NCBI RefSeq assembly: GCF_017876815.1
Contig: NZ_JAGIOS010000002.1
Location: 1,560,001-1,592,000, forward strand
DNA: 32,000 nucleotides
Direction of reading: 5' to 3'
Source of the DNA: Sinorhizobium meliloti
Lineage (GTDB): Bacteria; Pseudomonadota; Alphaproteobacteria; Rhizobiales; Rhizobiaceae
Shown here: piece by piece, positions 1,432-27,194 of the stretch
Layout of the letters: each line of letters begins with the position of its first letter
Position numbering within the stretch: position 1 is the first letter of the stretch
Program-made: the position numbers and the translations under genes
The notes under the pieces: generated by a model
Told to the model about the DNA's origin: nothing
The model's database searches: none
What the model saw: only the letters and a program-made list of their open reading frames with translations

Positions 1432-1448
1432 GAGGCTGCCTCAAAAAG
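1432..1448. repeat. IS left terminal inverted repeat
   Basis: See the mobile element entry; it pairs with 2348-2364. Confidence 0.6.
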
Positions 1449-1498
1449 AATTGAGTGATTTCAGCCAGTTGTGATTCCGTCGGATTTGCAAAGATTCG

Positions 1499-2344: not shown

Positions 2345-2347
2345 AAC

Positions 2348-2364
2348 CTTTTCGAGTCCGACTC
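2348..2364. repeat. IS right terminal inverted repeat
   Basis: The reverse complement GAGTCGGACTCGAAAAG matches the left end. Confidence 0.6.
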
Positions 2365-9765: not shown

Positions 9766-11058
9766 TCACGAGATTTGAACCTTGGTTGATCCAGCACCTC
9801 TCAGCTGCGTAAGGCCTAGTCCGAAACACAGAAGAATCGGCATGGTCCAATATCGCGCATACATATGCGGATTGAAGAGGGCGATTACCAGGAAGACCAG
9901 GATTGTCGTCACCACCGCCGCGAGCGCGCGTTTGTCTCCGCCAACCTTCAAGATCGCGAGCGCCAGCAGCATGCCGACGCCGGAAAACATCAACCAGCCG
10001 ACAAGCGCGAGCAATCCACCCTCGACCCAGAGGAGAAGATAAATATTGTGAACCGGGGCGCTTTGAACGCTTCTCTCACGGAATTGATCCGCACCGAGCC
10101 CCACGAGCCGGATCTGTTCCTCCGAGATTATATGAGCCGCTTCCTCCATCAGCGCGGCTCTGGAGAGGAACGTCCCCGCTTCGGATATGTCACCGGAGGA
10201 CAACGCGCCCAAAACCCGCGTCTGGAATGTCTTTGGCAGCATCTCCTTATTGCCGAATAGTGCCGCGCCGCCAACGACGATGCCGGCGCCAAGCGCCAGT
10301 CGCAAGAGCAGCCGCGGCGTCGAAATCATCGCAATGAAGACGGCAAGACATAGCGCGGTTGAAAACAGGCCGCTGTTCGAACTTGTCAGGACGACCGTGA
10401 CGATGACGATAACGAGGGCGGGCAAAGCGAGGTATGATTTCACGCGGCCCGAAGACCAGAAGAACAGCAGAATCGGCAGCGTAAGGGCGTTTATCGCCGC
10501 GGCAAGGTTCGGATTTCGCAACACGGTAGCCAGGCGCTTCCCGCCGGTCACGACGCCTTTACCTTCTCCGGGCACATACCCGACAGTATAGAACGTGATG
10601 ATACCGTGAATGTCGATGAGAATGACGCTGACCAGGAAGATGCCGGCCAGCCGATAGGCTTCCCTCGGGTCCTCACGGATGAGGATGACCATCAAGATCA
10701 GATAAGCGAAGAGATATTGCCCCATCACGATCAGTCCGCGCTGAGGACTGCCGTGGAACAGGCTGCCGAGCATGATCCCGATGAACAACAGCGTGAAAGC
10801 GCAGAGCCATATCGACGTCGTCTGTTCGAGCGGCCTGCTCCTGATACGCCCGGTGATCAAAAGAAGGAACAGGCTCAAGCAAAAGAAGAAATCGCTGAAT
10901 GTGAAGAAAAGTTCGGAAAACCGTAATGTCGCGTAGGGCGCCAGGAAGACGGCCAAATAGACGACGGCACGTTCGATCGCCGCAAGGCGAAGGTTTGTTC
11001 TGCTGGGCTGACTAGCAAAACGAAGTTGATGTGCCGTTGTCATACCGGTTTCTGACAC
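9766..11058 (-). CDS. Wzy-type polysaccharide polymerase / O-antigen-ligase-family membrane protein (ExoQ-like)
   Basis: The protein has about 10 or more hydrophobic helices. It carries the Wzy_C-type motif APVHNIYLLLWVEGGLLALVGWLMF after a larger hydrophilic loop. Confidence 0.85.
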   Translation of the reverse strand: MSETGMTTAHQLRFASQPSRTNLRLAAIERAVVYLAVFLAPYATLRFSELFFTFSDFFFCLSLFLLLITGRIRSRPLEQTTSIWLCAFTLLFIGIMLGSLFHGSPQRGLIVMGQYLFAYLILMVILIREDPREAYRLAGIFLVSVILIDIHGIITFYTVGYVPGEGKGVVTGGKRLATVLRNPNLAAAINALTLPILLFFWSSGRVKSYLALPALVIVIVTVVLTSSNSGLFSTALCLAVFIAMISTPRLLLRLALGAGIVVGGAALFGNKEMLPKTFQTRVLGALSSGDISEAGTFLSRAALMEEAAHIISEEQIRLVGLGADQFRERSVQSAPVHNIYLLLWVEGGLLALVGWLMFSGVGMLLALAILKVGGDKRALAAVVTTILVFLVIALFNPHMYARYWTMPILLCFGLGLTQLRGAGSTKVQIS

Positions 11059-11093: not shown

Positions 11094-12347
11094 TCATCCC
11101 GCTCTTGCGGAGCGCTGCATGGCGGCCATGCCGCCTGTGAGCTCTTCGTAGACCGATGTAATCGCATGAACGTGGCGCTCGAAACTGAAACGGGCACGTA
11201 CTTCGCTGCGCGCCGTTTCCACGATGCGATCGCGAAGCGCGGCATCGCTGAATAGTTTGAGGCAAGCCCTGGCGAATTCATCCGGATCGTCGGCGCGCAC
11301 GAGCATGCCGGTCCGGCCATCTTCAACCACTTCCGGATTTCCGCCGGAGTCGGCCGCGACGACCGGCGTACCGAGCAGCATCGCTTCGACAAGGGTTCTT
11401 CCGAGCGGTTCGCTGACCGCCGTCACCAGCAAAGCGTCCAGCCCTGCGATCCACGGCTCGCCCGGATAACGAAAGCCCATGAAGTGAATGCAATCGGCAA
11501 CTCCGAGCGCCTGGGCGCGCGATTTTGCGGCCTCGTCAAGACCGTTGAGCGCATTGCCGAAAAATAGGCCGGCAACCTTGGTCTCAGGCGACAGGCGCTT
11601 CAGCGCGGCAACCGCTTCGACAAACAGGATCGGCCGCTTGCGGTCCACCAGGGTCCCGACATAACCGAGAAGCTTCGTCTCCGGCGAACACCCAATCGCG
11701 GCCAGCACGTTGTTGCGGGCTTCCTCGCGCTCGAACCCCGCCATCTTCGTGACGTCGAAGGGGCTGTGCACGACGCTGCATTTGCTCGCGGCCGAGAAGA
11801 TCCCCGGGCGGGGCGATGCGAATTTCGACACGGCCACCAATCGGTTTGGAAGCCATGGCGCCACGCGGCGCAGACCGAACGAAGTCGCGTCGCCGCGATG
11901 ATGCCAGAGATGCTTCGCCCCTGCGACGCGCGCAGCGAGACCCCAGATGAGATGTGTGCGGCCATCATTCGTGTGTACGATCGAGGCATTGCTCGCTCGC
12001 AGGAATCGGACGAGCGCAGGAAGTGTGCGCATGACATTAACGACTGCGGCGCCATTGCGCGGAGCCGCTCGCGCCAGGCGGTTCAGAACCGGAGCGGCGA
12101 CAAAGTCGACGCCCTCGCGGCGAAACAAATCCGCGACCGGTCCATCGGTATCGTGCAGGACGACTAGCGGCACGAAGCGCGACCTGGGGAGATTCCGTAT
12201 CAGGCCGAGCGAGGACATGTGGCTCCCGCCGACGAGATCTCCAATGAAGGGGAGGCACACAATCACCTGATGACCGCCGGCTATGTTGGGCGTTTCCGGT
12301 TGGCGAAGATCAACTGCTGCAGAAGACGTCATTACCTTAGATCCCAA
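11094..12347 (-). CDS. GT4-family glycosyltransferase (GT-B fold)
   Basis: The C-terminal E-x7-E region reads VSEPLGRTLVEAMLLGTPVVAADSGGNPEVVEDGRTGMLV. The track start is a TTG; the ATG at 12332 is an alternative. Confidence 0.9.
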   Translation of the reverse strand: MGSKVMTSSAAVDLRQPETPNIAGGHQVIVCLPFIGDLVGGSHMSSLGLIRNLPRSRFVPLVVLHDTDGPVADLFRREGVDFVAAPVLNRLARAAPRNGAAVVNVMRTLPALVRFLRASNASIVHTNDGRTHLIWGLAARVAGAKHLWHHRGDATSFGLRRVAPWLPNRLVAVSKFASPRPGIFSAASKCSVVHSPFDVTKMAGFEREEARNNVLAAIGCSPETKLLGYVGTLVDRKRPILFVEAVAALKRLSPETKVAGLFFGNALNGLDEAAKSRAQALGVADCIHFMGFRYPGEPWIAGLDALLVTAVSEPLGRTLVEAMLLGTPVVAADSGGNPEVVEDGRTGMLVRADDPDEFARACLKLFSDAALRDRIVETARSEVRARFSFERHVHAITSVYEELTGGMAAMQRSARAG

Positions 12348-12393: not shown

Positions 12394-13320
12394 TCATTTC
12401 TCGGGGCTTCTGTTCCTCAGCCAGTCCGTCAGATCCCTTCCGACGAGGGCGCCGAGTTTTTCCGTTTCAGGCGCGAAGTAATCGGTCATCCGCGCGCGCA
12501 GGTCATGGCTGAGCGGTGCGTATTGAAGCTCGCCGGCAATCAGCGAGCGCAGTTTCTTGAAGCCGGTATTCTGCCGGAATGGAGCAGCCACCGGCTTCAA
12601 GGGACGCAGGAGCCGGCGCAGGGTCGGATTGACGACCGGTTCCGATTTGTCCTTCACCTTTTTTGCAAGCGGCTTCAGCGGAACATCGGCTTCGAGCCCG
12701 AGGAAGCCGCGAACGCGGGCGAGTTGGGCGCGGGCGTCGATCTTCAGGTCCTCGTAGAGGAGGACCAGAATCTGCTCCGCGGGGAAGCGGTCGAGATAAC
12801 CCTGCAACTGCTGATAATAAAGACCGCCGTTCAGGAAGCGCCCGCCGGCCCCTTGACGTGGGTCGAGGTACTGGGCGATGTCGCGCCCGACCTCGGCTCG
12901 GCGATAAAGCATGCAATAGTCGGAATAGGCCCGGTCCACCGGATTGCGAAGCTGCGCTATCAGGCGGGCCTCGGGCAGCTTTTCCTTTATTCTTTCTGCC
13001 GCTTCCGGCACATCCATGTAGGAGTTGGATTTTTCGCCATGCAGCAGCCGGTGCTCCTGGTCCGCGAAATGTTCCAGATACCATTCGTCGCCGCGCTCGT
13101 AATAGCGGCTGAAATAGTGCAGTTCCGGATCGGGCATGAATATGCCCGGGTCCTGCTGCAGCGATTGCTGAAGCCACGTCGTCGCGCTTTTCGTCGCTCC
13201 GATTATCAGAAAATCGATATCCCGCATTTCCATCTTTGGCCCTCTCTCGATCGCCTCACGGACGATTGCACCGAAACGATCGGTTCGCCGCCCCGCAACG
13301 GGCTTTTGTTCCTGGGTCAA
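12394..13320 (-). CDS. Sulfotransferase, Sulfotransfer_1-like (ST-B)
   Basis: It has a 5-prime-PSB loop FLIIGATKSATTWLQQSL and a 3-prime-PB motif IAQLRNPVDRAYSDY. The longest ORF starts at the TTG at 13320. The ATG at 13233 (MEMRDIDFLIIG, preceded by GAGAGAGGG) is the more plausible start. Confidence 0.9.
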   Translation of the reverse strand: MTQEQKPVAGRRTDRFGAIVREAIERGPKMEMRDIDFLIIGATKSATTWLQQSLQQDPGIFMPDPELHYFSRYYERGDEWYLEHFADQEHRLLHGEKSNSYMDVPEAAERIKEKLPEARLIAQLRNPVDRAYSDYCMLYRRAEVGRDIAQYLDPRQGAGGRFLNGGLYYQQLQGYLDRFPAEQILVLLYEDLKIDARAQLARVRGFLGLEADVPLKPLAKKVKDKSEPVVNPTLRRLLRPLKPVAAPFRQNTGFKKLRSLIAGELQYAPLSHDLRARMTDYFAPETEKLGALVGRDLTDWLRNRSPEK

Positions 13321-13557: not shown

Positions 13558-14910
13558 TCACGGCGCAGGGGTTCGGCGGTAGCTCAGCATCATCGTCGAC
13601 AGCCAGATCGACGCCATGACGATGTGGGCGACGTTCGCCCCCATCGCGCCTATGACCGGAATGAGGGCGAATGCGGTGGCATGAAAGCCGATCGCAGCGA
13701 TCGTGACGCTGCGCAGTATTTCGTTTTCGCGTCCCATCGCGAGAAGTGCCGAGCGGATGACGGCGCCGCACAGGGTCATGGTCACTGCGACCGACTGCAC
13801 GACGACGAGGGGACCCGCGGCTGCGAAATCCGGCCCGGCGGCCCAGGTCAGCAGCGGGCCGATCACGAGGTAGAGACCACCGATCAGAAGCAGCCCGAAC
13901 CCCAGAAGCAATCCCTGCATCTGTGCGACCGCGCGGTGGAAGGCGCTAAGCGCCTTGGTAGCCCATGCCCGAGCGAGCTCCGGATAGAGGACCGCCTGAA
14001 CCTGCACGCCGGCCTGCTGCGCGATGCGGCCGATGCGTTTGGCGATGTGATACAATCCGGCGGAGGTCGGATCGGCAAGATAGCCGACGAGGAGCGTGTC
14101 GAGCTCATTGGCGCTTGAACGAATGGTGAGCGAGAGGTTCGCCGAGATCGCGAATTTCCACAGACCCGGAAACCGCTTGGTAATGCCGTGAAGCGGAGCG
14201 CTCATCAGGCCCGAAAGGACGCCCTGCCGGCGCAGTTCGGCCAGCGAAAAAAGCACCAGGACGACGGTGCCGATGATCTGGGCCGACATCCAGATCAGCG
14301 CGAATTCGAACAGGCCTGCGCCGGTGGCGACGCCGATGGCGCAAAGAACGACTCTCAGCACGCTCGTGACCACCTGGCCATAGGCGATCGCCATAAAGCG
14401 CCCGTATAGGCGCAGCACGGCGGTCGGCATGCCGGAGACCTGGAACGGCAGGACCGTGCAGTAGAGGATGGCAAGGTCCGCCCCGTCTCCCGATATGCCA
14501 AGCCAGGGCGCGGCCACCAGAATGAGCAGGACGGCAACCAGCCATCCCACCAGTGCCGCGGAGATATCGAGCAGCAGGCCGAACTTGAGCAAGGCCCGAA
14601 GTTCGGTCGCATCGTCGGCGTTCTCCGCGAGCGAATGCGCGCCGTACTTGATCAGTGGCTGCCACGACTGGAAGCTGACGATCCGCTCGACCGCGCGTGT
14701 GTAGGAGAAGCATAGCGCGAGAATGCCGTAGCCTGCCGGACCGAGTGCCCTGGCTGTGAGCGCAAAGCCGATAAGGCCGATGACCGAGCTCAAAATGTTT
14801 CCCGTGAGCAGGTGCGCAATGCTTTGCAGGCGCTCCAGCAGCGTTTTCTCGCGACTGAGAATTTGCCGCAAGCTGCCGATTTTCTTGAGAAGCTTCTTTC
14901 GGAACGCCAC
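13558..14910 (-). CDS. Wzx-type (MOP superfamily) polysaccharide flippase
   Basis: About 12 hydrophobic segments are visible. The N-terminus AHLLTGNILSSVIGLIGFALTARALGPAGYGILAL is typical of polysaccharide-biosynthesis (Polysacc_synt) transporters. It starts at a GTG. Confidence 0.85.
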   Translation of the reverse strand: MAFRKKLLKKIGSLRQILSREKTLLERLQSIAHLLTGNILSSVIGLIGFALTARALGPAGYGILALCFSYTRAVERIVSFQSWQPLIKYGAHSLAENADDATELRALLKFGLLLDISAALVGWLVAVLLILVAAPWLGISGDGADLAILYCTVLPFQVSGMPTAVLRLYGRFMAIAYGQVVTSVLRVVLCAIGVATGAGLFEFALIWMSAQIIGTVVLVLFSLAELRRQGVLSGLMSAPLHGITKRFPGLWKFAISANLSLTIRSSANELDTLLVGYLADPTSAGLYHIAKRIGRIAQQAGVQVQAVLYPELARAWATKALSAFHRAVAQMQGLLLGFGLLLIGGLYLVIGPLLTWAAGPDFAAAGPLVVVQSVAVTMTLCGAVIRSALLAMGRENEILRSVTIAAIGFHATAFALIPVIGAMGANVAHIVMASIWLSTMMLSYRRTPAP

Positions 14911-15329: not shown

Positions 15330-16580
15330 ATGGGGATTTCACCGGCCGTTTATAGGACCATTTTGCCCCGTTGGAAGCTTGGGGCGTTCCTGCTGATGGT
15401 TCTTTGGACGCTTGCGTTCCCGATGATTACGTCTATGCCCGCTCAGGCCGGTGACTACCGGCTCAACTCGGGAGATGTTCTGACCTTCGACTTCCTTGAC
15501 GATGCCGAGCTGCCGGTTACCGCGACCGTGTCGGGCGCCGGCGTGGCGCAATTTCCACTCATCGGCGGGGTCGAGGTCGTCGGGCTCACGGTGCCGGAAG
15601 CACTGGCGAAGCTCCGTGGCGAGTACCGCAGGCGCGACGTTCTCGTCGATCCGAAAATCTCTCTCGATATTTCGACTTTTCGGCCGATTTTCGTGCTCGG
15701 AGAGGTCAAGACTCCGGGCTCGTTTCCTTTCTACAGCGGGCTGACCGTCGAGCAGGCCATCGGTCTGGCCGGGGGCATGCAGGTCGCTGCAGCGAGCGCA
15801 TCCGACCGGATCGTCGCACGCGCCCGTCTGCGTGCGGAGGCAGAGGCCGCCAACGCCGAGATCATCCACGAGGCCATCTATGCGGCGAGGCTCGTGGCTC
15901 AGTTGAAATCCAGCGACAAGATTGACCTCGCCGATGTGCCTGAGGTGGCACGCGACTATGTGACCGGCGTGCCCCTCGATGGCGTGATAGAGCTCGAAGA
16001 AAAGATTCTGAAGGCGGACCTCGCCGCAAACAAGTCGCAAGCGCAGATCCTGGCCGAGGGCATAACCCAGTCCGAAGGCGGCATCGAGATACTGAACCAA
16101 CTCATCCTGCAGCAAAAGGACGTGGTCCAGAACAGCAAGGAAGATGTGGAGCGTATCGCTACCTTGCGCAAGCGCGGGCTGAACACCGAGAGCGATCTTT
16201 CCCGCGCGGAGAACAGTGCTTCGGCCGAACAGGCTCAGCTTCTCGAGACCTTCGCCACACTTGCGCGATCGCGCCAGGAGTTGAGCGGGTTGAAGCTGCA
16301 GCTGGCAAAGCTTGCAGCCGACCGTGAGAAGGACATACTGACGCAGCTTCAAGCGCGTGAGATCGCTATCAAAAAGCTGATTTCTGGAAAGCACTCCGCC
16401 GAAGAGCAAATACTCCTCATGGCGGCGGTGGCCGAAGACGAGTCCAAGAAAAATCAGATTTCATATACCTATGAGATTCGGCGGAATCCGGTCGGCGGTA
16501 CGCCGGCCAGCATAAAGGCGTCCACCCTGACTGAACTCGTTCCGGGCGACGTGCTCATGGTGTCAATTGCCGGAATGTAA
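15330..16580 (+). CDS. Outer-membrane/periplasmic polysaccharide export protein (OPX; Wza/ExoF/GumB-like)
   Basis: It has a signal peptide (LLMVLWTLAFPMITSMPAQA). A Poly_export domain follows (YRLNSGDVLTFDF...VSGAGVAQFPLIGGVEVVGLTVPEALAKL...FVLGEVKTPGSFPF...LTVEQAIGLAGG), then a long coiled-coil region as in ExoF-type proteins. Confidence 0.9.
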   Translation: MGISPAVYRTILPRWKLGAFLLMVLWTLAFPMITSMPAQAGDYRLNSGDVLTFDFLDDAELPVTATVSGAGVAQFPLIGGVEVVGLTVPEALAKLRGEYRRRDVLVDPKISLDISTFRPIFVLGEVKTPGSFPFYSGLTVEQAIGLAGGMQVAAASASDRIVARARLRAEAEAANAEIIHEAIYAARLVAQLKSSDKIDLADVPEVARDYVTGVPLDGVIELEEKILKADLAANKSQAQILAEGITQSEGGIEILNQLILQQKDVVQNSKEDVERIATLRKRGLNTESDLSRAENSASAEQAQLLETFATLARSRQELSGLKLQLAKLAADREKDILTQLQAREIAIKKLISGKHSAEEQILLMAAVAEDESKKNQISYTYEIRRNPVGGTPASIKASTLTELVPGDVLMVSIAGM

Positions 16581-16642
16581 GACTTAAATTCAGAGATTTT
16601 GAAAACACGCTCTATGCGCTTCTGCGCCAAGGGAATATTGAG

Positions 16643-17323
16643 TTGAAAACCTATAGAGAACCTGCGGCCGTCAGCTTCGGCTTGCCTGCCTCCTTGGGAT
16701 TTTACCGTCTCAAGCGTTTCCTCGATTGCCTGTTTGCCGGAACCGTTTTCGTCCTGTGCCTGCCGCTGATGGTGGTCACGGCAGTGGTTGTTTGGGCTAC
16801 CCTCGGCTTGCCGCTGTTCTTCACCCAGGCGCGCGCCGGTGCGGGGATGCGCGTCTTTACCGTTGCCAAATTCCGCACGATGACGGATGCGCGGGCACCT
16901 GACGGCACGCTTTTGCCGGATGCGTTGCGGCAGACCGCCGCGACCGCTCTGTTGCGGCGGCTGCGCTTCGATGAACTGCCGCAACTCATTGCGGTGCTTT
17001 CCGGCGACATGTCGATGGTAGGTCCGCGCCCGCTTCCCTTGGCGACCGTCGCCGGCTTCGGCGAACTAGGCCGCATGCGCTGCCGCATCGCCCCGGGAAT
17101 GACCGGCTGGGCACAGGTAAACGGCAATACGCGGCTTTCGGACGAGGAGAAGATCGCTCTCGACCTCTGGTATGTCGCACATACCAGCCTCTGGCTCGAT
17201 GCGCGGATCCTCCTGTTGACCCTGAAAACGCTGGTCACCGGTGAGCGGGTTCATGCGCGGCATCTGCAAGAGGCCAGGGAGTTTCTTTCGCGCCGCCTTG
17301 GCGCAGAGACGCCGAAGGCGTGA
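16643..17323 (+). CDS. Small monotopic phosphoglycosyl transferase (Bac_transf; ExoY/PglC/WbaP-C-terminal type), initiating enzyme
   Basis: The sequence reads LKRFLDCLFAGTVFVLCLPLMVV...PLFFTQARAG...FTVAKFRTM...DELPQLIAVLSGDMSMVGPRPLP...PGMTGWAQVNG. It starts at a TTG. Confidence 0.9.
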   Translation: MKTYREPAAVSFGLPASLGFYRLKRFLDCLFAGTVFVLCLPLMVVTAVVVWATLGLPLFFTQARAGAGMRVFTVAKFRTMTDARAPDGTLLPDALRQTAATALLRRLRFDELPQLIAVLSGDMSMVGPRPLPLATVAGFGELGRMRCRIAPGMTGWAQVNGNTRLSDEEKIALDLWYVAHTSLWLDARILLLTLKTLVTGERVHARHLQEAREFLSRRLGAETPKA

Positions 17324-17375
17324 TGCGGCGGATGAGCGCGCGCCAAGGCGGCAATATTTTTGATCAGGAGGTTTC

Positions 17376-18062
17376 ATGGGTGGCGGGCAGATATCTTTCG
17401 GGCGCACTCTGGTCGTGGCGCCGCATCCCGATGACGAGGTGCTCGGCGCAGGCGGGACGATCGCGCGGCTCGCGGCCGAAGGTGAAGAGGTCTTCGTCGC
17501 GGTCGTGACGGAGGGAAAGCCTCCCGCCTTCGATCCGGAGGCAACTGCCCGGATACAGGCAGAAGCGAGGCAAGCGCACCGCGCCTTGGGCGTCACGGAA
17601 ACCATATGGCTCCGGCTGCCGGCAGCACAGCTTGCGGAAACGGCGCATGCGACCGTCAATGCCGCCTTGCTCGAACTCGTTCACCGGCTGTCGCCGCAAA
17701 CCGTCTTATTGCCCTTCGTGGGCGACATGCACATGGACCATCAGTTGACCTTCACGTCAGCGCTGGTCGCCTGCCGGCCGCACCAGGCGGAATTCCCAAA
17801 GCTCGTTCTCGCCTACGAGACCCTGTCAGAGACAAATTGGAATGCGCCCTATCTGTCTCCGGCGTTCGTGCCGAACGTCTTCGTCGATATCAGCGAGCAT
17901 CTCGAGGCAAAGCTCAAGGCGATGGAGTTGTTTGCTTCCCAGGTGCGCCAGCCGCCGCATGAGCGCTCGATCGCGACCCTCAGGGCGCTGGCGACCTTGC
18001 GCGGGGCGACCGTGATGCGGCAAGCGGCGGAAGCTTTCGTATTGGTCCGGCACGTCGTCTAG
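17376..18062 (+). CDS. PIG-L/LmbE-family N-acetylhexosamine de-N-acetylase
   Basis: It has the signature LVVAPHPDDEVLGAGGTIARL and a downstream HMDHQ metal-ligand region. An AGGAGG lies 4 nt upstream of the ATG. Confidence 0.9.
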   Translation: MGGGQISFGRTLVVAPHPDDEVLGAGGTIARLAAEGEEVFVAVVTEGKPPAFDPEATARIQAEARQAHRALGVTETIWLRLPAAQLAETAHATVNAALLELVHRLSPQTVLLPFVGDMHMDHQLTFTSALVACRPHQAEFPKLVLAYETLSETNWNAPYLSPAFVPNVFVDISEHLEAKLKAMELFASQVRQPPHERSIATLRALATLRGATVMRQAAEAFVLVRHVV

Positions 18063-18130
18063 GTTGAGGGACGGCGTCGCACGGAATTACTCACTATTGC
18101 CACAAGACCCAATTCAAATCGGAGGGACAG

Positions 18131-19321
18131 ATGGGACGCTGGCCGGTTTACGACGAGGAGCAGATCGAGGATGTCGTGTCGGTCCTCAGATCTGGCGAGG
18201 TGAATGCCTGGACGGGACCGCACGTCCGCAACTTCGAGGCTGCCTATGAGCGCTTTCTCGGCGTAAAATATGCGGTGGCTCTCGCCAACGGAACGGTGGC
18301 GCTGGACCTCGCGCTCTTCGCGCTCGGACTTGAGCCGGGCGATGAGGTCATCGTGACGCCGCGCAGTTTCATTGCCTCGGCCTCAACGGTGCCGATGGCG
18401 GGTGGAGTTGCGGTTTTCGCCGACGTCGATCGCGACAGCCAAAACATCACCGCGGAAACCATAAGGGCGAAGCTGACGCCGAGGACCAAGGGCGTCATCG
18501 TCGTGCATCTGGCCGGCTGGCCCTGCGACATGCCCGCCATAATGGCGCTTGCCCGCGAAAAGGGGCTGTGGGTGATAGAGGATTGCGCTCAGGCGCACGG
18601 CGCCGAAATCGACGGCCGGCCGGTCGGCAGTTTCGGTGACATAGCGGCTTTTTCCTTCTGTCAGGACAAGATCATCACCACTGGAGGCGAGGGCGGGCTC
18701 GTGGCGATGAACGACGACGAGCTCTGGAAAAAGGCCTGGAGCCGCAAGGACCATGGCAAGTCGTATGACGCCGTCTACAACAAAGAGCACCCTCCGGGTT
18801 TCAGGTGGCTGCATGAGTCCATCGGCACCAACTGGCGCATGATGTCGATCCAGGCGGTCATGGGATCGCGTCAGTTGCAGCGCCTGACGGAATGGCGCAG
18901 CATAAGAGCGCACAATGCGGCTATTATCGCCAGAGCGGCCGAGGAGATCGAGGCTTTGCGCACGCCCTTGCCGCCCCGTGGGATTCAGCACGCGTGGTAC
19001 AGGTTCTATACGTTTCTTCGGCCGGAGCGCCTGCGGCCCGACTGGAGCCGGGACCGGATCATTGCCGAAATCAACGGCGCCGGCGTCGCATGCTTCAGCG
19101 GCAGTTGCTCGGAAATCTACTTGGAAAAAGCCTTTACGGACATCGGTATGGCCCCGGCCCAGAGATTGCCCGACGCGCGCGAGCTCGGCGAGACGAGCCT
19201 GGCCTTCCTGGTCGACCCCGCGCTCGATACGGCGGCAATGGAGAAGGCGGCGCATGTCCTGCGGGAGGTGTTTGCAAGGGCCAGCATCGGCAGGCCAGCC
19301 CTCGATGCCGCGCGGCGTTAG
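18131..19321 (+). CDS. DegT/DnrJ/EryC1/StrS-family PLP-dependent nucleotide-sugar aminotransferase
   Basis: Family motifs are present: FE..YE.FLGVKYAVALANGTVALDLAL, VIVTPRSFIASA, VIEDCAQAHGA and AFSFCQDKIITTGGEGG, which contains the PLP lysine. Confidence 0.95.
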   Translation: MGRWPVYDEEQIEDVVSVLRSGEVNAWTGPHVRNFEAAYERFLGVKYAVALANGTVALDLALFALGLEPGDEVIVTPRSFIASASTVPMAGGVAVFADVDRDSQNITAETIRAKLTPRTKGVIVVHLAGWPCDMPAIMALAREKGLWVIEDCAQAHGAEIDGRPVGSFGDIAAFSFCQDKIITTGGEGGLVAMNDDELWKKAWSRKDHGKSYDAVYNKEHPPGFRWLHESIGTNWRMMSIQAVMGSRQLQRLTEWRSIRAHNAAIIARAAEEIEALRTPLPPRGIQHAWYRFYTFLRPERLRPDWSRDRIIAEINGAGVACFSGSCSEIYLEKAFTDIGMAPAQRLPDARELGETSLAFLVDPALDTAAMEKAAHVLREVFARASIGRPALDAARR

Positions 19322-19358: not shown

Positions 19359-20201
19359 TCAGACGTTCAATCCCGTGTGGCCGACGAGACGTTTGGCGGA
19401 GACCGTCAGGTCGGCCGCGCACAAACCCTCGACCTCTGCGACCTGCGCCTCGTCCAGATAGTCCCTGAACCCACCTGCCTTACCACGGCGCATGCGCAGG
19501 CTTTCCACGTCGTTCCGATCGTAGTCATGAGCCGGAATGCCTTCTACCCGCTCCCTGTCCTGCATGGCCTCGAACCGGCCGGCCTCGACCGCTGCCCGGA
19601 GCGCCGTTCGATCGACCGGACAGCGGAGAAATTCCAGCACCGCCTCGGTTTGTCCTTCCGTGTCGGCGGAGAGGCCCTCGTAGCTCAGAACGAAGTGCGC
19701 GCGGTTGGACAGGCCGGCTGCCCAGCGATTGAGATAACCGATCATCTTGGGCATACCCTGGTCACGGTCCTTTATGAACTCCGTAAGGGTGCCGGCGAAA
19801 CGGTGTTTGTGCCGGGTCGCATGGAAATAGGCCGACACGATCACGTCGCGCGGGTCTCTTACCATCATGATGACCGGACGCCTGAGGAACAGGCTGGCGC
19901 GATAGTCCAGGTGGCTGACGAGGATCGTCGGAATTGCGTCTTGCGCCTCGCGGAAGCGGTAACCCGGCATTCCGCGCACCGGGTCGAGATCGAAATTCGG
20001 TACGATCGAGAACATGTTATGAAGGTCTATCGGTTCCGGCACGCGCGCGATCGTCGCGAGATAGTGGGAAAGAACGTACCGAAACCAGGTGCGGCCCGAT
20101 TTTGGATAGGAGATCAGGAAACTGTCGGCTTGAGCGGCATAAGTGGTAAGCCGTACCCGCTTCTCCACCCGACGCCATGCCCGCCTGAGAATACTTGCCA
20201 T
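19359..20201 (-). CDS. Sulfotransferase, cytosolic-ST-like Sulfotransfer_1 (ST-C)
   Basis: It has a 5-prime-PSB loop LISYPKSGRTWFRYVL and a 3-prime-PB motif MMVRDPRDVIVSAYFH. It appears monocistronic, with a long AT-rich upstream region. Confidence 0.9.
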   Translation of the reverse strand: MASILRRAWRRVEKRVRLTTYAAQADSFLISYPKSGRTWFRYVLSHYLATIARVPEPIDLHNMFSIVPNFDLDPVRGMPGYRFREAQDAIPTILVSHLDYRASLFLRRPVIMMVRDPRDVIVSAYFHATRHKHRFAGTLTEFIKDRDQGMPKMIGYLNRWAAGLSNRAHFVLSYEGLSADTEGQTEAVLEFLRCPVDRTALRAAVEAGRFEAMQDRERVEGIPAHDYDRNDVESLRMRRGKAGGFRDYLDEAQVAEVEGLCAADLTVSAKRLVGHTGLNV

Positions 20202-20415: not shown

Positions 20416-20703
20416 GCTTACGGTTCCGGGTCGGCCGGCGGCTGGCAATTTCAGGCATTCGTTTTAGCAATTTGAATATGAAATGAAAAACAAGCATTCT
20501 GTCAATAACGTGCTTGCATACGGCGTGAGGCGCGCCCGGTAACATTCCAATCGGCATTGGTGAAGATCGTGGTGTTTTGCATCGCGAAGACGGAATGGAG
20601 GCACCAGATGATGTCCCTTGGGCGAAGAGAAACCGTTGCTGCGGCGGCAGCCACTACTCCTGTCCGTGACGCTCGCCGGGCTTCAGGGGAGGGGTATCTC
20701 GAA

Positions 20704-21885
20704 ATGAACGACAGTTCGAATTCCCCGGCGTCGAATATATCCGGAGCGCGTGTGACGATCGTCCTGCCGGGCCTCGGCGCCGGCGGCACCGAGCACGTGG
20801 TGAACCTGGTTGCCAACCATTGGGTTCGGCGCGGCTGCAAAGTGACGATCATCACCCTCGAACCGCCGGATGCGAAGCCCTATTACGCGTTGGATCCAAA
20901 GATCTCAATCGAGCGCCTCGGTTTGCCGCCGCAAAGGGCTGGGAAGATCGAGGCGGGCCTGCTTGTGCTCAAGAGAATCTATCGCTTGCGCTCCGCCATT
21001 CGCCGCTCGCAGCCCGATTTCGTGTTGAGCTTTCTGACCCGAACGAACGTGCTGACGCTGCTGGCGACGATCGGGCTGCAGGCTCCGGTGATCGTGTCCG
21101 AGCGCAACAATCCGGCGCTGCAACCTTTCGGCCCAGTCTGGAAATGGGTTCAGCGCCGCCTATATCCGCGCGCGTTCGGTCTCGTGACGATGACCAAGGG
21201 CGCGCTCGACTATTTTCCAGAGAAGATGCGCAGTAGGGGGTGGGTGGTCGCCAACGCCGTCGACCTGCCCGGCGAGTGGCAGAAAAGACGCGGCAACAAT
21301 ATCTTGGCCGCGGTTGGCCGGCTCACGCGTCAGAAGGGCTTCGATCTCCTGATCGAGGCCTTTGCGCGGATTGCCACGAGGCACCCCGAATGGAAGCTCG
21401 TCATCTGGGGCGAGGGCGATGACAGGAAATCGCTCGAGGCACTGCGGGACGCGCTGGATCTGAGGGACAGGGTTGAGTTGCCGGGCGTGACCCAAAGGCC
21501 GGGGCTGTGGGTGGAGACGGCCGACGTCTTCGTATTGTCGTCCCGTTACGAGGGATGGGGCATCGTCTTGCTCGAGGCCATGGCTGCAGGGCTCCCCGTG
21601 GTTTCCTTTGCATGCGAGTGGGGCCCCTCGGACATGGTGAAGCATGGTGAGGATGGGATCCTCGTTCCCAGTAACGATGTGGATGCGCTTGCCGAGGCAC
21701 TGTCCAGGATGCTCGGTGACGGTGAGCTCAGGAGCCGTCTTGCTGCAAATGCCGAGGCGAGCGCCAAGAGATACTTGCCGGAGCGCATACTTTCGCAATG
21801 GGACGCAGTCGCGTCGTCGGCCCTGAAACACTCGGCCCGCGAACATGCCAGGACGGTGTCGGCCGCCGAACCCGGTTCGGCTTGA
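20704..21885 (+). CDS. GT4-family glycosyltransferase
   Basis: The N-terminus reads RVTIVLPGLGAGGTEHVV. The C-terminal region reads SSRYEGWGIVLLEAMAAGLPVVSFACEWGPSDMVKHGEDGILV. The track ORF begins at 20557, but the ATG at 20704 follows GGGAGGGG at a good distance and removes a non-GT-like leader. Confidence 0.9.
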   Translation: MNDSSNSPASNISGARVTIVLPGLGAGGTEHVVNLVANHWVRRGCKVTIITLEPPDAKPYYALDPKISIERLGLPPQRAGKIEAGLLVLKRIYRLRSAIRRSQPDFVLSFLTRTNVLTLLATIGLQAPVIVSERNNPALQPFGPVWKWVQRRLYPRAFGLVTMTKGALDYFPEKMRSRGWVVANAVDLPGEWQKRRGNNILAAVGRLTRQKGFDLLIEAFARIATRHPEWKLVIWGEGDDRKSLEALRDALDLRDRVELPGVTQRPGLWVETADVFVLSSRYEGWGIVLLEAMAAGLPVVSFACEWGPSDMVKHGEDGILVPSNDVDALAEALSRMLGDGELRSRLAANAEASAKRYLPERILSQWDAVASSALKHSAREHARTVSAAEPGSA

Positions 21886-24284: not shown

Positions 24285-25382
24285 ATGAAGATCGCCTTTC
24301 ATGCACCGCTGAAATCGCCTGACCACCCTGTCCCTTCCGGCGACAGGCAGATGGCACGCATGCTGATCGAAGCGCTACGGGTGGCAGGTCACGACGTCGG
24401 CATCGCCTCGGAACTGCGCACCTTCTCGCGTGAAGCCTCGGATGCGGCATTTTCGGCGTTGCGCAAGGAGGCCGAGCGGGAGATCGCCCGGATTCGGCGG
24501 CTCTGGCAGTCGAAAGGCCCGCCCGACCTGTGGTTTTGCTACCACCCTTACTACAAGGCTCCGGATCTCATCGGTCCCGCGCTCTCGGCGGACTTCTCCA
24601 TTCCATACGTTACCGCCGAGAGTTCTTATTCCTTTCGGCGCAACTTGGGTGCATGGAAACTGGCGCAAGATGAGGTCGCCGCCGGTGCAAGGCAGGCTGC
24701 GGTCAACATCTGTTTCACCCATCGTGACCGCGAGGGTCTCGAAGAGGCGATACCGGAAGTGCGCTCTGCGCTGCTCGCCCCTTTCATCGATGTGTCGCCG
24801 TTTCGCGACCTGCGAAGAACAGAGGCCGGCGGGAACCGGCTGTTCGCCGTCGCGATGATGCGTACGGGCGACAAGATGGATAGCTATCGCATGCTTGCCC
24901 GCGCGCTCGCCCTCGTCGCCGATGTGCCCTGGACGCTTACGGTGGTGGGCGACGGCCCTGCACGGGCTGACGTATCGGAAGCCTTCTCGGCCTTTCCCGC
25001 AGGACGGCTGGATTGGCTTGGCGAGAGGCCGCCTCAGGCGATTCCGGAGATTCTCGCGGGCGGCGACCTCTATGTCTGGCCGGGCTGCGGGGAGGCCTAC
25101 GGACTATCCTATCTGGAGGCGCAGGCTGCCGGCCTCCCTGTCGTCGCGCAGCACACGGCAGGTGTTCCAGAAGTCGTACGAAACGGCGAAACGGGATATC
25201 TGACGACGGCCGGGGACATCGACGCGCTGGCGGCAGCGCTGCGACACTTCCTCGTGGACGGGACCTTACGCAGGCAATTTGGCGAGCGCGCGCGGCGTTT
25301 CGTTTTCGAGCAGCGCTCGCTTCCCGCCGCCGCCGCACGTCTCTCCGGAATCTTCGCCGAGTTCGTTGGGAGTGCGAAATGA
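24285..25382 (+). CDS. GT4-family glycosyltransferase
   Basis: The C-terminal region reads GCGEAYGLSYLEAQAAGLPVVAQHTAGVPEVVRNGETGYL. Its stop overlaps the next start (ATGA at 25379-25382). Confidence 0.9.
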   Translation: MKIAFHAPLKSPDHPVPSGDRQMARMLIEALRVAGHDVGIASELRTFSREASDAAFSALRKEAEREIARIRRLWQSKGPPDLWFCYHPYYKAPDLIGPALSADFSIPYVTAESSYSFRRNLGAWKLAQDEVAAGARQAAVNICFTHRDREGLEEAIPEVRSALLAPFIDVSPFRDLRRTEAGGNRLFAVAMMRTGDKMDSYRMLARALALVADVPWTLTVVGDGPARADVSEAFSAFPAGRLDWLGERPPQAIPEILAGGDLYVWPGCGEAYGLSYLEAQAAGLPVVAQHTAGVPEVVRNGETGYLTTAGDIDALAAALRHFLVDGTLRRQFGERARRFVFEQRSLPAAAARLSGIFAEFVGSAK

Positions 25383-26149
25383 CGATGGCATCGATCTGGC
25401 AAACGCTTGCCAACAGGCTCGATCGCCTGCAGGAGACAGGCGGATCGATCGACTTCTGGCTGCGGGACGACGATGCCGTCGAGCCGACGGCGGCCCTTCA
25501 CCGACTGCTCGACCTTACCGACCGCTTTTCGGTGCCGGTGAGCTTGGCCGTCATACCGGCACATACCGACGAGCGCCTCTCGCGCTGCCTCGCCGGCCGT
25601 CCGCATGTCGATGTTGCTGTCCACGGGTGGTCCCATCAAAACCATGCCCCTGTGACTGAAAAACGCCAGGAACTGGGAGGACACAGGTCGCGCGAGATGG
25701 TTGCGGCCGACTTGCGCGCCGGTTGGGCACGCCTGCGCGCGCTTTATCCCACCGCTATGGTGCCGCTCCTCGTTCCGCCATGGAACCGGATCGATCCGGG
25801 GCTGGTCGCCGGATTGCACGAGATCGGGTTTAGGGCCCTTTCGGTTTTCGGACCGGAGGAGGGGGCAAAATCCGCCGCATTACGCGTTCCCGGGCTGCAG
25901 CTCATAAATGCCCATGTGGATGTGATGGACTGGCACGGCACCCGCGGCTGTCGCCCTTATGGCGAGATCCTTCGCGACATCGATAGCCGACTGGATGAAA
26001 TCGAGAAGGGCGGCGGGACGGTGGGAATTCTCACCCACCACCTCGTTCACGACGAGAGCGTATGGGAATTCCTCTCCGGACTTTTCGACGTCACCGCCTC
26101 GCACGCGGCCTGCCGCTGGCGCAGGGTCGCCGATCTTATAGATCGATGA
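25379..26149 (+). CDS. CE4/NodB-like polysaccharide deacetylase family protein
   Basis: CE4-like motifs can be read: WLRDDDA (Asp-Asp), HGWSHQNH (H-x3-H) and LVPPWNR (R/P-P-Y/W). The start is set at the ATG that overlaps the upstream stop. The track ORF from 25013 is an out-of-context 5-prime extension overlapping the GT4 gene. Confidence 0.7.
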   Translation: MTMASIWQTLANRLDRLQETGGSIDFWLRDDDAVEPTAALHRLLDLTDRFSVPVSLAVIPAHTDERLSRCLAGRPHVDVAVHGWSHQNHAPVTEKRQELGGHRSREMVAADLRAGWARLRALYPTAMVPLLVPPWNRIDPGLVAGLHEIGFRALSVFGPEEGAKSAALRVPGLQLINAHVDVMDWHGTRGCRPYGEILRDIDSRLDEIEKGGGTVGILTHHLVHDESVWEFLSGLFDVTASHAACRWRRVADLIDR

Positions 26150-26966: not shown

Positions 26967-27194
26967 TCCGTTCCGGCTTTATCCTGCCTGCCGTAGCACT
27001 TTGCCCGGGCGTAGTGATTAGACAAGCACAAATCATGAGGGTCCTGCAATGCCATTGGCGCCATCGCGCACGGATTGCATGGCGAGAAGAGAAATCTATT
27101 CATCGAAGCGAAGGTGCTTTATCCATCGTAATCGGGTGAAAATCGCTCCAGCCTGGAATCAGCGACAGATGTCACCTCTAGGAGTTTGGCAACG

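Follow-up and report, generated by a model that had tools for sequence, protein, structure and literature searches.

A PIG-L de-N-acetylase with a formyltransferase partner may unmask an amine of the priming sugar in the cAMP/Clr-induced nodP2-smb21248 cluster of Sinorhizobium meliloti pSymB

Introduction

The nodP2-smb21248 cluster of Sinorhizobium meliloti Rm1021, which is induced by cAMP/Clr, was proposed by Zou et al. (2017) to make a sulfated surface polysaccharide; in its naming the sulfotransferases are SMb21237, SMb21243 and SMb21249, the deacetylase is SMb21247 and the aminotransferase is SMb21248. Published transcriptomics showed that nodP2Q2, SMb21243, SMb21247 and SMb21248 are co-induced by cAMP/Clr, and that SMb21240 and SMb21242 are Clr targets. 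A literature search found no later work on the structure of the polymer made by this cluster.

The closest described enzymes and pathways are the following. NDST enzymes de-N-acetylate a GlcNAc-derived sugar first and use PAPS; their deacetylase is fused to the sulfotransferase and works on GlcNAc residues within a GlcA-GlcNAc chain, and in NDST1 it folds as a (beta/alpha)7 barrel resembling Agd3/CE4, with a His-His-Asp triad (PMC10864358). MshB, BshB and Orf2*/Dbv21 (mycothiol, bacillithiol and teicoplanin, respectively) de-acetylate a GlcNAc glycoside whose amine then takes another substituent. Bacillosamine-type pathways use PglF, PglE (Pcryo_0638), PglD and PglC. The Arn pathway combines a DegT aminotransferase (ArnB), a formyltransferase (ArnA), transfer to undecaprenyl phosphate (ArnC) and a CE4 amide hydrolase (ArnD) by which the formyl group is removed. 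Finally, a 2026 preprint (SugarBase) reports that the CMP-nonulosonic acids of Ca. Kuenenia stuttgartiensis have one free and one formylated amine, and assigns these sugars to a deacetylase and a formyltransferase of the leg cluster that act at the nucleotide-sugar level; in this case the formyl group is kept, the acetyl group is lost and a free amine is a documented end state.

A first-pass annotation of the S. meliloti DNA studied here had likened, as a hypothesis from gene content, the deacetylase and sulfotransferases of this locus to NDST, with a sulfated hexosamine-uronate polymer as the product. We compare the locus below with all of these systems.

Results

The locus and its genes

The window (the whole 32,000-nucleotide stretch that was analysed) matches S. 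meliloti pSymB with 100% identity and is the right half of the nodP2-smb21248 cluster (Table 1). It is the same locus as that of Rm1021, except that an insertion sequence lies between the formyltransferase and dehydratase genes; this IS5-family element is intergenic, strain-specific and missing from other pSymB copies, and its breakpoints were located, with a CTCTTA overlap. Just beyond the left window edge are nodP2-nodQ2-cysQ (PAPS supply and PAP removal), and beside these, about 5–6 kb past the edge, are genes for a PylC-like ATP-grasp protein and a PHP phosphoesterase. All of the genes named in the first-pass annotation are present, at or near the positions it gave; it had omitted the formyltransferase, the PglF-like dehydratase, the CE4/DUF2334-type deacetylase and the insertion sequence.

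Table 1. Features of the 32,000-nucleotide window (positions count from its first letter)
Feature	Position	Strand	Remark
PglF/WbpM-type membrane-anchored UDP-GlcNAc 4,6-dehydratase, 5' part	1..1259	-	Runs past left window edge
IS5-family insertion sequence	1432..2361	+	Transposase ORF 1499-2344; Pfam DUF4096 + DDE_Tnp_1
FDH/ArnA-like N-formyltransferase, N- and C-terminal domains	2578..3522	-	Pfam
Conserved 290-aa protein, annotated 'ATP-binding protein'	3942..4814	+	Adjoins ST-A
Sulfotransferase ST-A, Sulfotransfer_3 type (SMb21237 by gene order)	4882..5820	+	Pfam
Secreted PL1-type (pectate-lyase-fold) protein, C-terminal TSP3 repeat	5861..7309	+	NCBIfam PelZ 133 bits
Wzz/Wzc-type chain-length/co-polymerase protein, SMb21240	7464..9452	-	Pfam Wzz
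Wzy-type polymerase	9766..11058	-	Pfam Wzy_C
GT4 glycosyltransferase, SMb21242	11094..12347	-	Pfam
Sulfotransferase ST-B, SMb21243, heparan-sulfate 3-OST/NDST sequence class	12394..13320	-	Pfam
Wzx flippase	13558..14910	-	Pfam Polysacc_synt
Wza-type outer-membrane export protein	15330..16580	+	Pfam Poly_export + SLBB
Monotopic phosphoglycosyltransferase, 226 aa, repeat-unit starter	16643..17323	+	Pfam Bac_transf 170 bits
PIG-L/LmbE (CE14) zinc de-N-acetylase, SMb21247	17376..18062	+	Pfam PIG-L
DegT-family sugar 4-aminotransferase, SMb21248	18131..19321	+	Pfam 303 bits
Sulfotransferase ST-C, SMb21249, cytosolic-SULT class	19359..20201	-	Pfam Sulfotransfer_1 86 bits
GT4 glycosyltransferase	20557..21885	+	Pfam; annotated start ~20704
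GT4 glycosyltransferase	24285..25382	+	Pfam; stop overlaps next gene
Cytoplasmic CE4/DUF2334-type deacetylase	25376..26149	+	Weak Pfam DUF2334, Polysacc_deac_1
DUF3095 protein	27186..28397	+	Pfam; neighbouring module
Nucleotide-sugar dehydrogenase	28387..29820	-	Pfam; neighbouring module
Adenylate/guanylate cyclase	30172..31521	+	Pfam; neighbouring module
PF14099 polysaccharide lyase	31530 onward (to 32000)	+	Pfam; neighbouring module

No ATP-grasp or HAD homologue was found within the window. The 290-aa protein beside ST-A was considered as the ATP-grasp of the conserved operon and rejected, since by comparison it is not that protein; its Pfam match is below threshold, it has a weak methyltransferase-like match, and homologues are present in seven of the related loci described below (which are cited by our own numbers; L002, L010, L085, L087, L100, L143, L155). 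The CE4/DUF2334-type protein, the second deacetylase of the locus, has DD and H-x-x-x-H motifs, is annotated as a 'polysaccharide deacetylase family protein', is kept in L005 and L006, and is of the metal-triad class to which the NDST deacetylase belongs.

The deacetylase SMb21247

SMb21247 is an intact 228-aa open reading frame that matches Pfam PIG-L (PF02585) with 87 bits (E 1.9e-24; gathering cut-off 28.2 bits) and has no signal peptide. Across 16 orthologues, residues H17, D19, D20, H119, D121 and H122 do not vary; they belong to the AHPDDE and H-x-D-H motifs. Its AlphaFold model (pLDDT 87.8) has the LmbE alpha/beta fold, and Foldseek aligned it at TM 0.76–0.78 with BC1534, diacetylchitobiose deacetylase, BshB and TT1542, all of which act on small GlcNAc glycosides. 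The scores against the NCBIfam equivalogs BshB1 (83.8, cut-off 182.5) and MshB (35.9, cut-off 224) are far below their cut-offs, and NCBIfam has no dedicated model for the PIG-L, formyltransferase or sulfotransferases of this cluster. By these sequence criteria SMb21247 is a real amino-sugar de-N-acetylase in its predicted activity, and the claim that it creates a free amine is plausible. It has its fold and zinc motifs in common with MshB, BshB and Orf2*/Dbv21, and probably their logic of exchanging an acetyl group for another substituent, but it lies in a polysaccharide locus, where it probably acts on a diamino sugar bound to a nucleotide or a lipid.

The gene is the middle one of three on the + strand, separated by 52 bp from the phosphoglycosyltransferase upstream and by 68 bp from the DegT aminotransferase downstream, which bears out the operon that the first-pass annotation had described. 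No NDST chain was among the sequence hits of SMb21247 or among its 48 significant structural hits, from a library in which NDST1 was present.

The predicted priming-sugar enzymes

The best PDB match of SMb21248 by far is 7L7X (E 4e-134; runner-up 2e-49), the Pcryo_0638 enzyme, for which UDP-4-keto-6-deoxy-GlcNAc 4-aminotransferase activity has been demonstrated (PMC8040287), and its S-F-C-Q-D-K motif retains the Gln that contacts the C2 acetamido group; SMb21248 is thus probably a UDP-4-keto-6-deoxy-GlcNAc aminotransferase. The dehydratase is 50% identical to that of Kaistia over window positions 3–1229 (tblastn), and its gene is annotated in strain ml46, whose full-length protein has Polysacc_synt_2 and CoA_binding_3 domains. 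NCBIfam matches of the phosphoglycosyltransferase span its C-terminal catalytic domain only. A bacillosamine-type set of UDP-GlcNAc 4,6-dehydratase, 4-aminotransferase and small phosphoglycosyltransferase is therefore present, with counterparts of PglF, PglE and PglC. Unlike the bacillosamine-type pathway, the cluster is without PglD (no hexapeptide-repeat protein, the left-handed beta-helix type of this N4-acetyltransferase, was found within the window, and the PglD-like protein cluster has no alphaproteobacterial member among the PIG-L loci); in its place are a formyltransferase and PIG-L, and the locus further includes sulfotransferases.

The formyltransferase and the conserved partners of PIG-L

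The PDB matches of the formyltransferase include ArnA, Fmt and FDH at about 1e-30 (5e-31 for the ArnA formyltransferase domain), and relatives of sugar N-formyltransferases also appear among them. It is 60% identical to a Kaistia formyltransferase whose stop codon overlaps the PIG-L start codon, and by this sequence comparison we take it for the orthologue of the enzyme encoded right beside PIG-L in other genera. The two S. meliloti genes share a cluster without being neighbours, as 14.8 kb separates them. All 36 formyltransferases linked to PIG-L have a G[FY]H motif, and so does that of the window. A Gly replaces the catalytic Asn in the S. meliloti protein; inactivation as the meaning of this replacement was rejected, since 10-formyl-THF dehydrogenase, which gives the best core alignment, is also without the Asn.

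Partners were counted in 83 related PIG-L loci. An FDH/ArnA-like formyltransferase gene is directly upstream of PIG-L, at most 300 bp away on the same strand, in 33 of them, and these 33 are from Alpha- and Gammaproteobacteria, Planctomycetota, Clostridia, Dictyoglomus, Longimicrobium and Actinobacteria. DegT is within 10 kb of PIG-L in 57 loci and a phosphoglycosyltransferase within 3 kb in 44, and of the 51 loci that have 8 kb or more of flanking sequence on each side, 25 have neither a formyltransferase nor a sulfotransferase near PIG-L. In Kaistia, Rhodoligotrophos and Prosthecomicrobium the order is phosphoglycosyltransferase, formyltransferase, PIG-L with overlapping start and stop codons, and DegT is 3–46 bp downstream. 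Apparent fusions of the phosphoglycosyltransferase to the formyltransferase or to PIG-L in stop-to-stop reading frames were rejected as frame coincidences or a frameshift in a metagenome-assembled genome.

Distant relatives of the formyltransferase/PIG-L pair are in legionaminic-acid-type clusters (L065–L074), which run via 2-acetamido-4-amino-trideoxyhexose as does the pathway proposed here for S. meliloti. Three of these nonulosonic-acid loci also have a PglD-like acetyltransferase (L066, L068, L074), and three formyltransferase/PIG-L loci have no DegT within 10 kb (L036, L041, L052); both arrangements would fit formylation of N2 after deacetylation. Literature searches for a formyltransferase with PIG-L/LmbE, for formamido sugars with a deacetylase and for legionaminic acid with LmbE returned nothing relevant. 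The Kuenenia leg cluster resembles that of S. meliloti in having a deacetylase and a formyltransferase in a 2-acetamido-4-amino-trideoxyhexose route, a likeness of pathway, and its sugar goes on to a nonulosonic acid whereas that of S. meliloti would go to lipid via the phosphoglycosyltransferase. A protein search from the PIG-L of a planctomycete nonulosonic-acid cluster returned metagenomic proteins only.

The sulfotransferases

ST-A has a single, weak PDB match (the CurM sulfotransferase), ST-B matches 3rnl (1e-25), 3-OST-3A (1.5e-16) and NDST1 (4e-11), and ST-C, whose gene is convergent with that of SMb21248, matches SULT2B1 (1e-12). The true start of ST-B is probably near 13233. The Kaistia and Rhodoligotrophos loci each encode one sulfotransferase, with which ST-B has 55–58% identity; ST-B also has the E-x-H-[YF]-F motif seen in the O-sulfating 3-OSTs. 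The Sulfotransfer_1-type ST-B and ST-C of the first-pass annotation are thus present, and ST-A makes three. Of the 83 loci, 19 have a sulfotransferase near PIG-L; all 19 are from Alphaproteobacteria, where ST-B orthologues accompany PIG-L in 15 of 31 loci; none was found near PIG-L in the 52 loci from other groups, even at HMM sensitivity. ST-B orthologues also occur in long metagenomic loci, roughly half of which are without PIG-L, formyltransferase and DegT. The conserved partners of SMb21247 are the formyltransferase and the enzymes of the first sugar, not sulfotransferases.

The lyases and the neighbouring module

Both lyase genes of the first-pass annotation exist, but only one of them is in the cluster. 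The PL1-type protein has a signal-peptide-like N-terminus, matches PDB 9buj (a pectate lyase, 1e-18) and VexL (1e-5), and is conserved in the locus of other Alphaproteobacteria (protein cluster 15, 10 loci). The right-hand lyase (PF14099; the full-length ml46 copy scores 134 bits) had no sequence homologue in the PDB, so that 'heparinase-I-like' describes its Pfam family membership alone. The dehydrogenase gene, put forward as the source of a uronic acid, is also in place; the best equivalog matches of its product are UDP-ManNAc and UDP-GlcNAc dehydrogenases, all below cut-offs. The arrangement DUF3095-dehydrogenase-cyclase-ABC-GT is conserved on Rhizobium leguminosarum and R. etli plasmids in which the PIG-L/sulfotransferase cluster is absent, and by this comparison the dehydrogenase and the right-hand lyase (27186–32000) appear to belong to a separate module outside the polysaccharide cluster. 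All five glycosyltransferases in and beside the window are GT4 and a heparosan-type synthase is absent among them, which, together with the separate module, speaks against a hexosamine-uronate backbone.

Discussion

The results above show what the genes are, which partnerships are conserved, the fold and the intact catalytic motifs; from this we infer the substrate of PIG-L, the order of the steps and the nitrogen that is formylated as follows. The PglF-like dehydratase and the DegT aminotransferase would convert UDP-GlcNAc to UDP-2-acetamido-4-amino-2,4,6-trideoxy-D-glucose, the FDH/ArnA-like formyltransferase would formylate one nitrogen, PIG-L would strip the GlcNAc-derived 2-N-acetyl group, and the small phosphoglycosyltransferase would transfer this sugar to the lipid carrier, where it would begin a Wzx/Wzy repeat unit. 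The substrate of SMb21247 would then be a monosaccharide-level precursor, nucleotide- or undecaprenyl-diphosphate-linked, and not the finished polymer. The resulting diamino sugar would have a single formamide, and its other amine would be unmasked or carry a different substituent. The unmasked amine might remain free and cationic, be N-sulfated, or receive an acyl group from the ATP-grasp ligase of the cluster; by analogy with the Kuenenia data, a product with a formamide and a de-acetylated amine may be expected. That the cytoplasmic PIG-L unmasks N2 of a 2,4-diamino-2,4,6-trideoxyhexose priming sugar at the precursor stage is our best explanation, and we consider it somewhat probable.

The formyl group might instead replace the acetyl group on the same nitrogen, PIG-L freeing N2 and the formyltransferase re-acylating it, with N4 left free or handled by the ATP-grasp ligase or a sulfotransferase. 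The tight translational coupling of the two genes, the pairs that have no DegT within 10 kb, and the nonulosonic-acid loci in which a PglD-type enzyme, the pair and a single DegT give two acyl donors for one new amine all favour such an exchange. The Kuenenia data cannot separate it from unmasking of N2 with the formyl group elsewhere, because both give one formamide and one free amine. We nonetheless think it rather unlikely, since to our knowledge all characterised sugar N-formyltransferases (ArnA, WbtJ, VioF, WbkC, PseJ) act on amines made by an aminotransferase. Considerably more doubtful is a transient formylation as in the Arn pathway, in which the 4-amine would be formylated to pull the aminotransferase equilibrium and PIG-L would be a deformylase, the analogue of ArnD, after transfer to lipid. 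The cluster's DegT enzyme, formyltransferase, lipid-phosphate transferase and amidohydrolase do parallel ArnB, ArnA, ArnC and ArnD, and none of the formyltransferase's matches is closer than the ArnA formyltransferase domain; but ArnD is a CE4 enzyme and not PIG-L, characterised PIG-L enzymes are de-N-acetylases, and the formyl group is kept and the acetyl group lost in Kuenenia, the sole organism with chemical data.

N-sulfation of the amine freed by PIG-L or made by DegT, by a PAPS-dependent sulfotransferase, would give a sulfamate like that of heparan sulfate, in keeping with the NDST logic. ST-B is of the 3-OST/NDST sequence class and thus kin to the NDST sulfotransferase domain, its orthologues accompany PIG-L in about half of the alphaproteobacterial loci, and Clr co-induces PIG-L, ST-B and nodP2Q2. 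Moreover, in a minimal sphingomonad locus (L024) PglF, DegT and sulfotransferase genes overlap codon to codon, with the sulfotransferase in the place of PglD, and the adjoining GT4, formyltransferase and PIG-L genes make two amine-producing enzymes for one N-acyl donor. Against this are the absence of sulfotransferases near PIG-L outside Alphaproteobacteria, the many ST-B loci that have no PIG-L, formyltransferase or DegT, the ST-B motif typical of O-sulfation, and the free amines of Kuenenia; in addition, ST-B is kept in six loci that have both a formyltransferase and an ATP-grasp protein (L002, L003, L012, L031, L100, L101), which together could cap both amines. We know of no N-sulfated bacterial polysaccharide. 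We regard it as unlikely that an ST-B-type enzyme N-sulfates N2 or N4 of the 2,4-diamino-2,4,6-trideoxyhexose, and were it to do so, it would act with a non-homologous deacetylase and at the precursor stage, not on polymer. The comparison with NDST itself breaks down at three points, the fold, the fusion and the level of the substrate: the S. meliloti deacetylase has the LmbE fold and is a separate, cytoplasmic protein tied to the priming-sugar pathway (its aminotransferase neighbour being close to 7L7X), the sulfotransferases are encoded by separate genes and accompany PIG-L in a minority of loci, and Wzx/Wzy polymerisation is periplasmic. The NDST-type coupling of deacetylase and sulfotransferase in the first-pass annotation is thus not borne out, nor is deacetylation of chain GlcNAc. 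N-sulfation along the lines of heparan sulfate, though conceivable, lacks support, because the conserved partners of PIG-L are the formyltransferase and the first-sugar enzymes.

A sulfated polysaccharide as the product of the cluster is reasonable, given its three sulfotransferases and the nodP2-nodQ2-cysQ genes; on this the first-pass annotation agrees with the proposal already published in 2017. To this the analysis adds the predicted priming sugar and the partnership of formyltransferase and PIG-L. This pair shows itself to be a widespread, uncurated editing module, found across many phyla in both priming-sugar and nonulosonic-acid pathways. Should the unmasked amine of the S. meliloti sugar prove to be N-sulfated, the polymer would be, as far as we know, the first sulfamate-bearing bacterial polysaccharide. 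For the cAMP/Clr-induced pSymB cluster, which is implicated in controlling secondary infection of Medicago, the analysis predicts a 2,4-diamino-2,4,6-trideoxyhexose priming sugar that would have a formamide and a de-acetylated nitrogen, and names the four enzymes that would make it.

The deacetylase and its gene cluster

Window positions 15000–22000 match Sinorhizobium meliloti pSymB at 100% identity, and this segment is found in 84 plasmid records, almost all from Sinorhizobium or Ensifer. The window covers the right half of strain Rm1021's ~30-kb "nodP2-smb21248" cluster. The cAMP/Clr-induced genes of this cluster include nodP2, nodQ2, SMb21240, SMb21242, SMb21243 (a sulfotransferase), SMb21247 (labelled "sugar (GlcNAc-containing) deacetylase") and SMb21248 (an aminotransferase), and the same authors pointed out three sulfotransferases (SMb21237, SMb21243 and SMb21249; here ST-A, ST-B and ST-C) and put forward a sulfated surface polysaccharide as the product, describing its structure as "under investigation" (Zou et al. 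2017, PMC5498481); the general claim of such a product in the first-pass annotation was thus already published. A 2025 paper still terms the cluster uncharacterised, and no later structural work on its polysaccharide was found in the literature. The deacetylase ORF (SMb21247, hereafter PIG-L) is a real feature within a known, annotated, uncharacterised cluster.

Features of the window
Feature	Position	Strand	Remarks
PglF-type UDP-GlcNAc 4,6-dehydratase, 5' part	1–1259	-	Not in first-pass annotation
IS5-family element	1432–2361		~925 bp; transposase ORF 1499–2344; not in first-pass annotation
Formyltransferase	2578–3522	-	Not in first-pass annotation
290-aa protein	3942–4814
ST-A	4882–5820
PL1-like protein	5861–7309
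ST-B	12394–13320
Phosphoglycosyltransferase	16643–17323	+
PIG-L	17376–18062	+	228 aa
ST-C	19359–20201
MscS-family channel	21991–24207		738 aa
GT4 glycosyltransferase	24285–25382
CE4/DUF2334-type deacetylase	25376–26149		Start overlaps GT4 stop; not in first-pass annotation
DUF3095/dehydrogenase/cyclase module	27186–32000
Nucleotide-sugar dehydrogenase	28387–29820
PF14099 lyase	31530 onward

The placement of PIG-L beside the initiating phosphoglycosyltransferase and the aminotransferase holds: all three genes are on one strand, with PIG-L 52 bp after the phosphoglycosyltransferase (of the small Bac_transf type) and 68 bp before SMb21248 (DegT). Also confirmed are the three sulfotransferases, the dehydrogenase, the PF14099 lyase and the PL1-like protein, and the window otherwise encodes a Wzx/Wzy system (Wza, Wzx, Wzy, a Wzc-like protein and three GT4 glycosyltransferases). 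The mechanosensitive channel gene lies between two cluster glycosyltransferase genes, and the conserved, uncharacterised 290-aa protein, which has a weak methyltransferase-like match, accompanies ST-A and turns up again at the margins of several related loci. The IS5-family element, missing from other pSymB copies, is inserted 211 bp past the formyltransferase stop and 172 bp ahead of the dehydratase start; in this strain it could exert a polar effect on the dehydratase and GT4 genes.

The ORF belongs to the PIG-L family (87 bits, cut-off 28.2), and its AHPDDE and H-x-D-H motifs (H17, D19, D20, H119, D121, H122) are invariant in 16 orthologues of 62–92% identity. Its AlphaFold model (pLDDT 87.8) has structural matches only to LmbE-fold enzymes (TM up to 0.78), namely BC1534, diacetylchitobiose deacetylases, BshB, TT1542, Dbv21/Orf2* and MshB, all of which have small GlcNAc glycosides as substrates; its scores for the BshB and MshB equivalog models fall far short of the cut-offs. 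No signal peptide was found in PIG-L, so in a Wzx/Wzy pathway it can have access only to nucleotide-linked or lipid-linked precursors.

A predicted priming-sugar pathway

The best match of SMb21248 is PDB 7L7X (E = 4e-134; second-best match 2e-49), which is Pcryo_0638, shown biochemically to convert UDP-4-keto-6-deoxy-GlcNAc to UDP-2-acetamido-4-amino-2,4,6-trideoxy-D-glucose (PMC8040287). The S-F-C-Q-D-K motif of SMb21248 retains the Gln whose hydrogen bond to the C2 acetamido group is seen in 7L7X. By homology, the aminotransferase, PglF-type dehydratase and small phosphoglycosyltransferase are a predicted bacillosamine-type priming-sugar pathway, differing from the known one in that the S. 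meliloti version is missing the PglD acetyltransferase, which was found neither in the window nor in any alphaproteobacterial locus examined.

More distant PIG-L relatives (30–40% identity) sit, often directly after a formyltransferase, in legionaminic-acid-type clusters with NeuB, a hydrolysing 2-epimerase, a CBS-nucleotidyltransferase, a CMP-transferase, a LegB-like dehydratase and a PglD-like protein (by Pfam). These loci (L063–L083; e.g., L066, 5800–15300) come from Halomonas, Paenibacillus, Clostridium, Pelagibacteraceae and others. The intermediate common to both contexts is an NDP-2-acetamido-4-amino-trideoxyhexose. In Ca. Kuenenia stuttgartiensis, CMP-nonulosonic acids with one free and one formylated amine are reported, with "a deacetylase and a formyltransferase" placed between the legB/legC and neuB genes (SugarBase preprint, 2026); in gene order this matches the architecture of our legionaminic-acid-type loci, and the Kuenenia deacetylase may be a PIG-L of this subfamily.

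Neighbors of PIG-L across loci

Neighbors were scored by tblastn and HMMs in 83 loci around PIG-L relatives (29–83% identity) from genomes of many phyla. A formyltransferase lies within 300 bp on the same strand in 33/83 loci, a DegT aminotransferase within 10 kb in 57/83, a phosphoglycosyltransferase within 3 kb in 44/83 and a sulfotransferase within 10 kb in 19/83. Alphaproteobacteria account for 17 of the loci with an adjacent formyltransferase (of 31 in the set) and other groups for 16 (of 52), the latter including Gammaproteobacteria, Planctomycetota, Clostridia, Dictyoglomus, Longimicrobium and one actinobacterial MAG. In Kaistia, Rhodoligotrophos and Prosthecomicrobium the order is phosphoglycosyltransferase, formyltransferase, PIG-L, DegT, ATP-grasp, HAD, with start/stop codon overlaps extending through PIG-L. 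Identity between the S. meliloti formyltransferase and the PIG-L-adjacent one of these loci is 60%, which indicates that the pair is kept in S. meliloti though split over two operons. In cyanobacteria and Bacteroidales (L019–L021, L046, L042; about 9300–11800) a WbqC-family gene precedes PIG-L, and in the cyanobacterial loci a GNAT/FemAB-like acyltransferase, a different acylating partner, follows it.

Polymer backbone and the right-hand module

The first-pass annotation envisaged a glycosaminoglycan-like hexosamine–uronate polymer, citing the dehydrogenase as a possible source of uronic acid and two lyases as enzymes that act on uronate-containing polymers. The PL1-like protein is a conserved locus member (10 loci) with similarity to pectate lyases and to the Vi-antigen lyase VexL, and a polymer containing uronic acid would be compatible with this. 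The dehydrogenase, however, is flanked by DUF3095 and adenylate/guanylate cyclase genes. This trio, with the same ABC-transporter genes after it, recurs as a conserved module in many Rhizobium plasmids, among them R. leguminosarum and R. etli plasmids with no PIG-L/sulfotransferase cluster beside it; the S. meliloti PF14099 lyase gene falls within the module, 8 bp past the end of the cyclase gene. Given this synteny, and their absence from the reported Clr targets (Zou et al. 2017, PMC5498481), the dehydrogenase and PF14099 lyase are most likely part of another pathway, an outcome that the first-pass annotation had itself named as counting against its hypothesis and that is indicated here by synteny rather than expression data. 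After the module, R. leguminosarum (L166) has genes for three glycosyltransferases and for a cyclic-nucleotide-binding protein.

Fate of the amine

Heparan-sulfate-like (NDST-type) chemistry, in which the amine freed by PIG-L is N-sulfated, had been suggested from gene content. Our results do not support it, and we consider N-sulfation improbable, whether of that amine or of the one made by DegT. ST-B does fall in the 3-OST/NDST class (1.5e-16 and 4e-11), but its E-x-H-[YF]-F motif is that of the O-sulfating 3-OSTs. A minimal sphingomonad locus (L024) also favors N-sulfation, as its PglF, DegT and sulfotransferase genes overlap by codons and adjoin GT4–formyltransferase–PIG-L, so that two enzymes making amines are accompanied by a single formyl donor and a single sulfotransferase. 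(In this locus, spanning L024 2656–10663, the former group continues to Wza with overlapping codons and is divergent from the latter, and its sulfotransferase stands where bacillosamine operons have PglD.) Against this, all 19 sulfotransferase-bearing loci are alphaproteobacterial, and no sulfotransferase was found near PIG-L in the 52 others, HMM sensitivity included. In reverse, among 80 metagenomic loci around ST-B orthologues (~40 of at least 9 kb, ~26 with full 10-kb flanks), PIG-L is nearby in 13 of the ~40 long loci, and in about half of the ~40 PIG-L, formyltransferase, DegT and dehydratase are all absent, so PIG-L and the sulfotransferase are not obligate partners in either direction. 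ST-B is orthologous (55–58% identity) to the single sulfotransferase of the Kaistia/Rhodoligotrophos loci, and its orthologues remain in loci whose formyltransferase and ATP-grasp ligase could in principle cap both amines. S. meliloti too encodes a PylC-like ATP-grasp ligase together with a PHP phosphoesterase, directly next to cysQ-nodQ2-nodP2, a parallel to the Kaistia-type ATP-grasp/HAD pair; in strain ml46 (L165, 8326–14679) they lie with an NAD-dependent epimerase ~4.6–11 kb past the window's left edge. Finally, the NDST1 deacetylase adopts an Agd3/CE4-like (beta/alpha)7 barrel fold, and PIG-L is at best its analogue. The cytoplasmic CE4/DUF2334-type protein (DD and H-x-x-x-H motifs) is nearer in enzyme class, and if any enzyme of the cluster deacetylates a chain sugar, this GT4-coupled protein would be the closer counterpart.

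In 36/36 PIG-L-linked formyltransferases (that of S. meliloti and those of 35 loci) G-[FY]-H replaces the canonical catalytic N-x-H. We do not interpret the replacement as inactivating, since 10-formyl-THF dehydrogenase is missing the same Asn and gives the best alignment over the catalytic core; overall the S. meliloti protein is equally close to the ArnA formyltransferase domain, Fmt and the 10-formyl-THF dehydrogenase N-terminal domain (each ~1e-30). Most likely, PIG-L would take the 2-N-acetyl group off a 4-amino or 4-formamido-4,6-dideoxy-HexNAc precursor, the formyltransferase would cap one of its nitrogens, and the phosphoglycosyltransferase would then transfer the edited sugar to the lipid carrier. 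To our knowledge every characterised sugar formyltransferase acts on an aminotransferase-made amine, which favors N4, whereas some loci favor formylation at N2 after deacetylation, namely formyltransferase–PIG-L pairs without DegT (L036, L041, L052) and legionaminic-acid-type loci also holding a PglD-like acetyltransferase (L066, L068, L074). The Kuenenia sugars keep their formyl group, which makes it unlikely that PIG-L serves as an Arn-like deformylase. To the published picture of the cluster we thus add the assignment of its deacetylase to a conserved formyltransferase/PIG-L pair predicted to edit a bacillosamine-type priming sugar.
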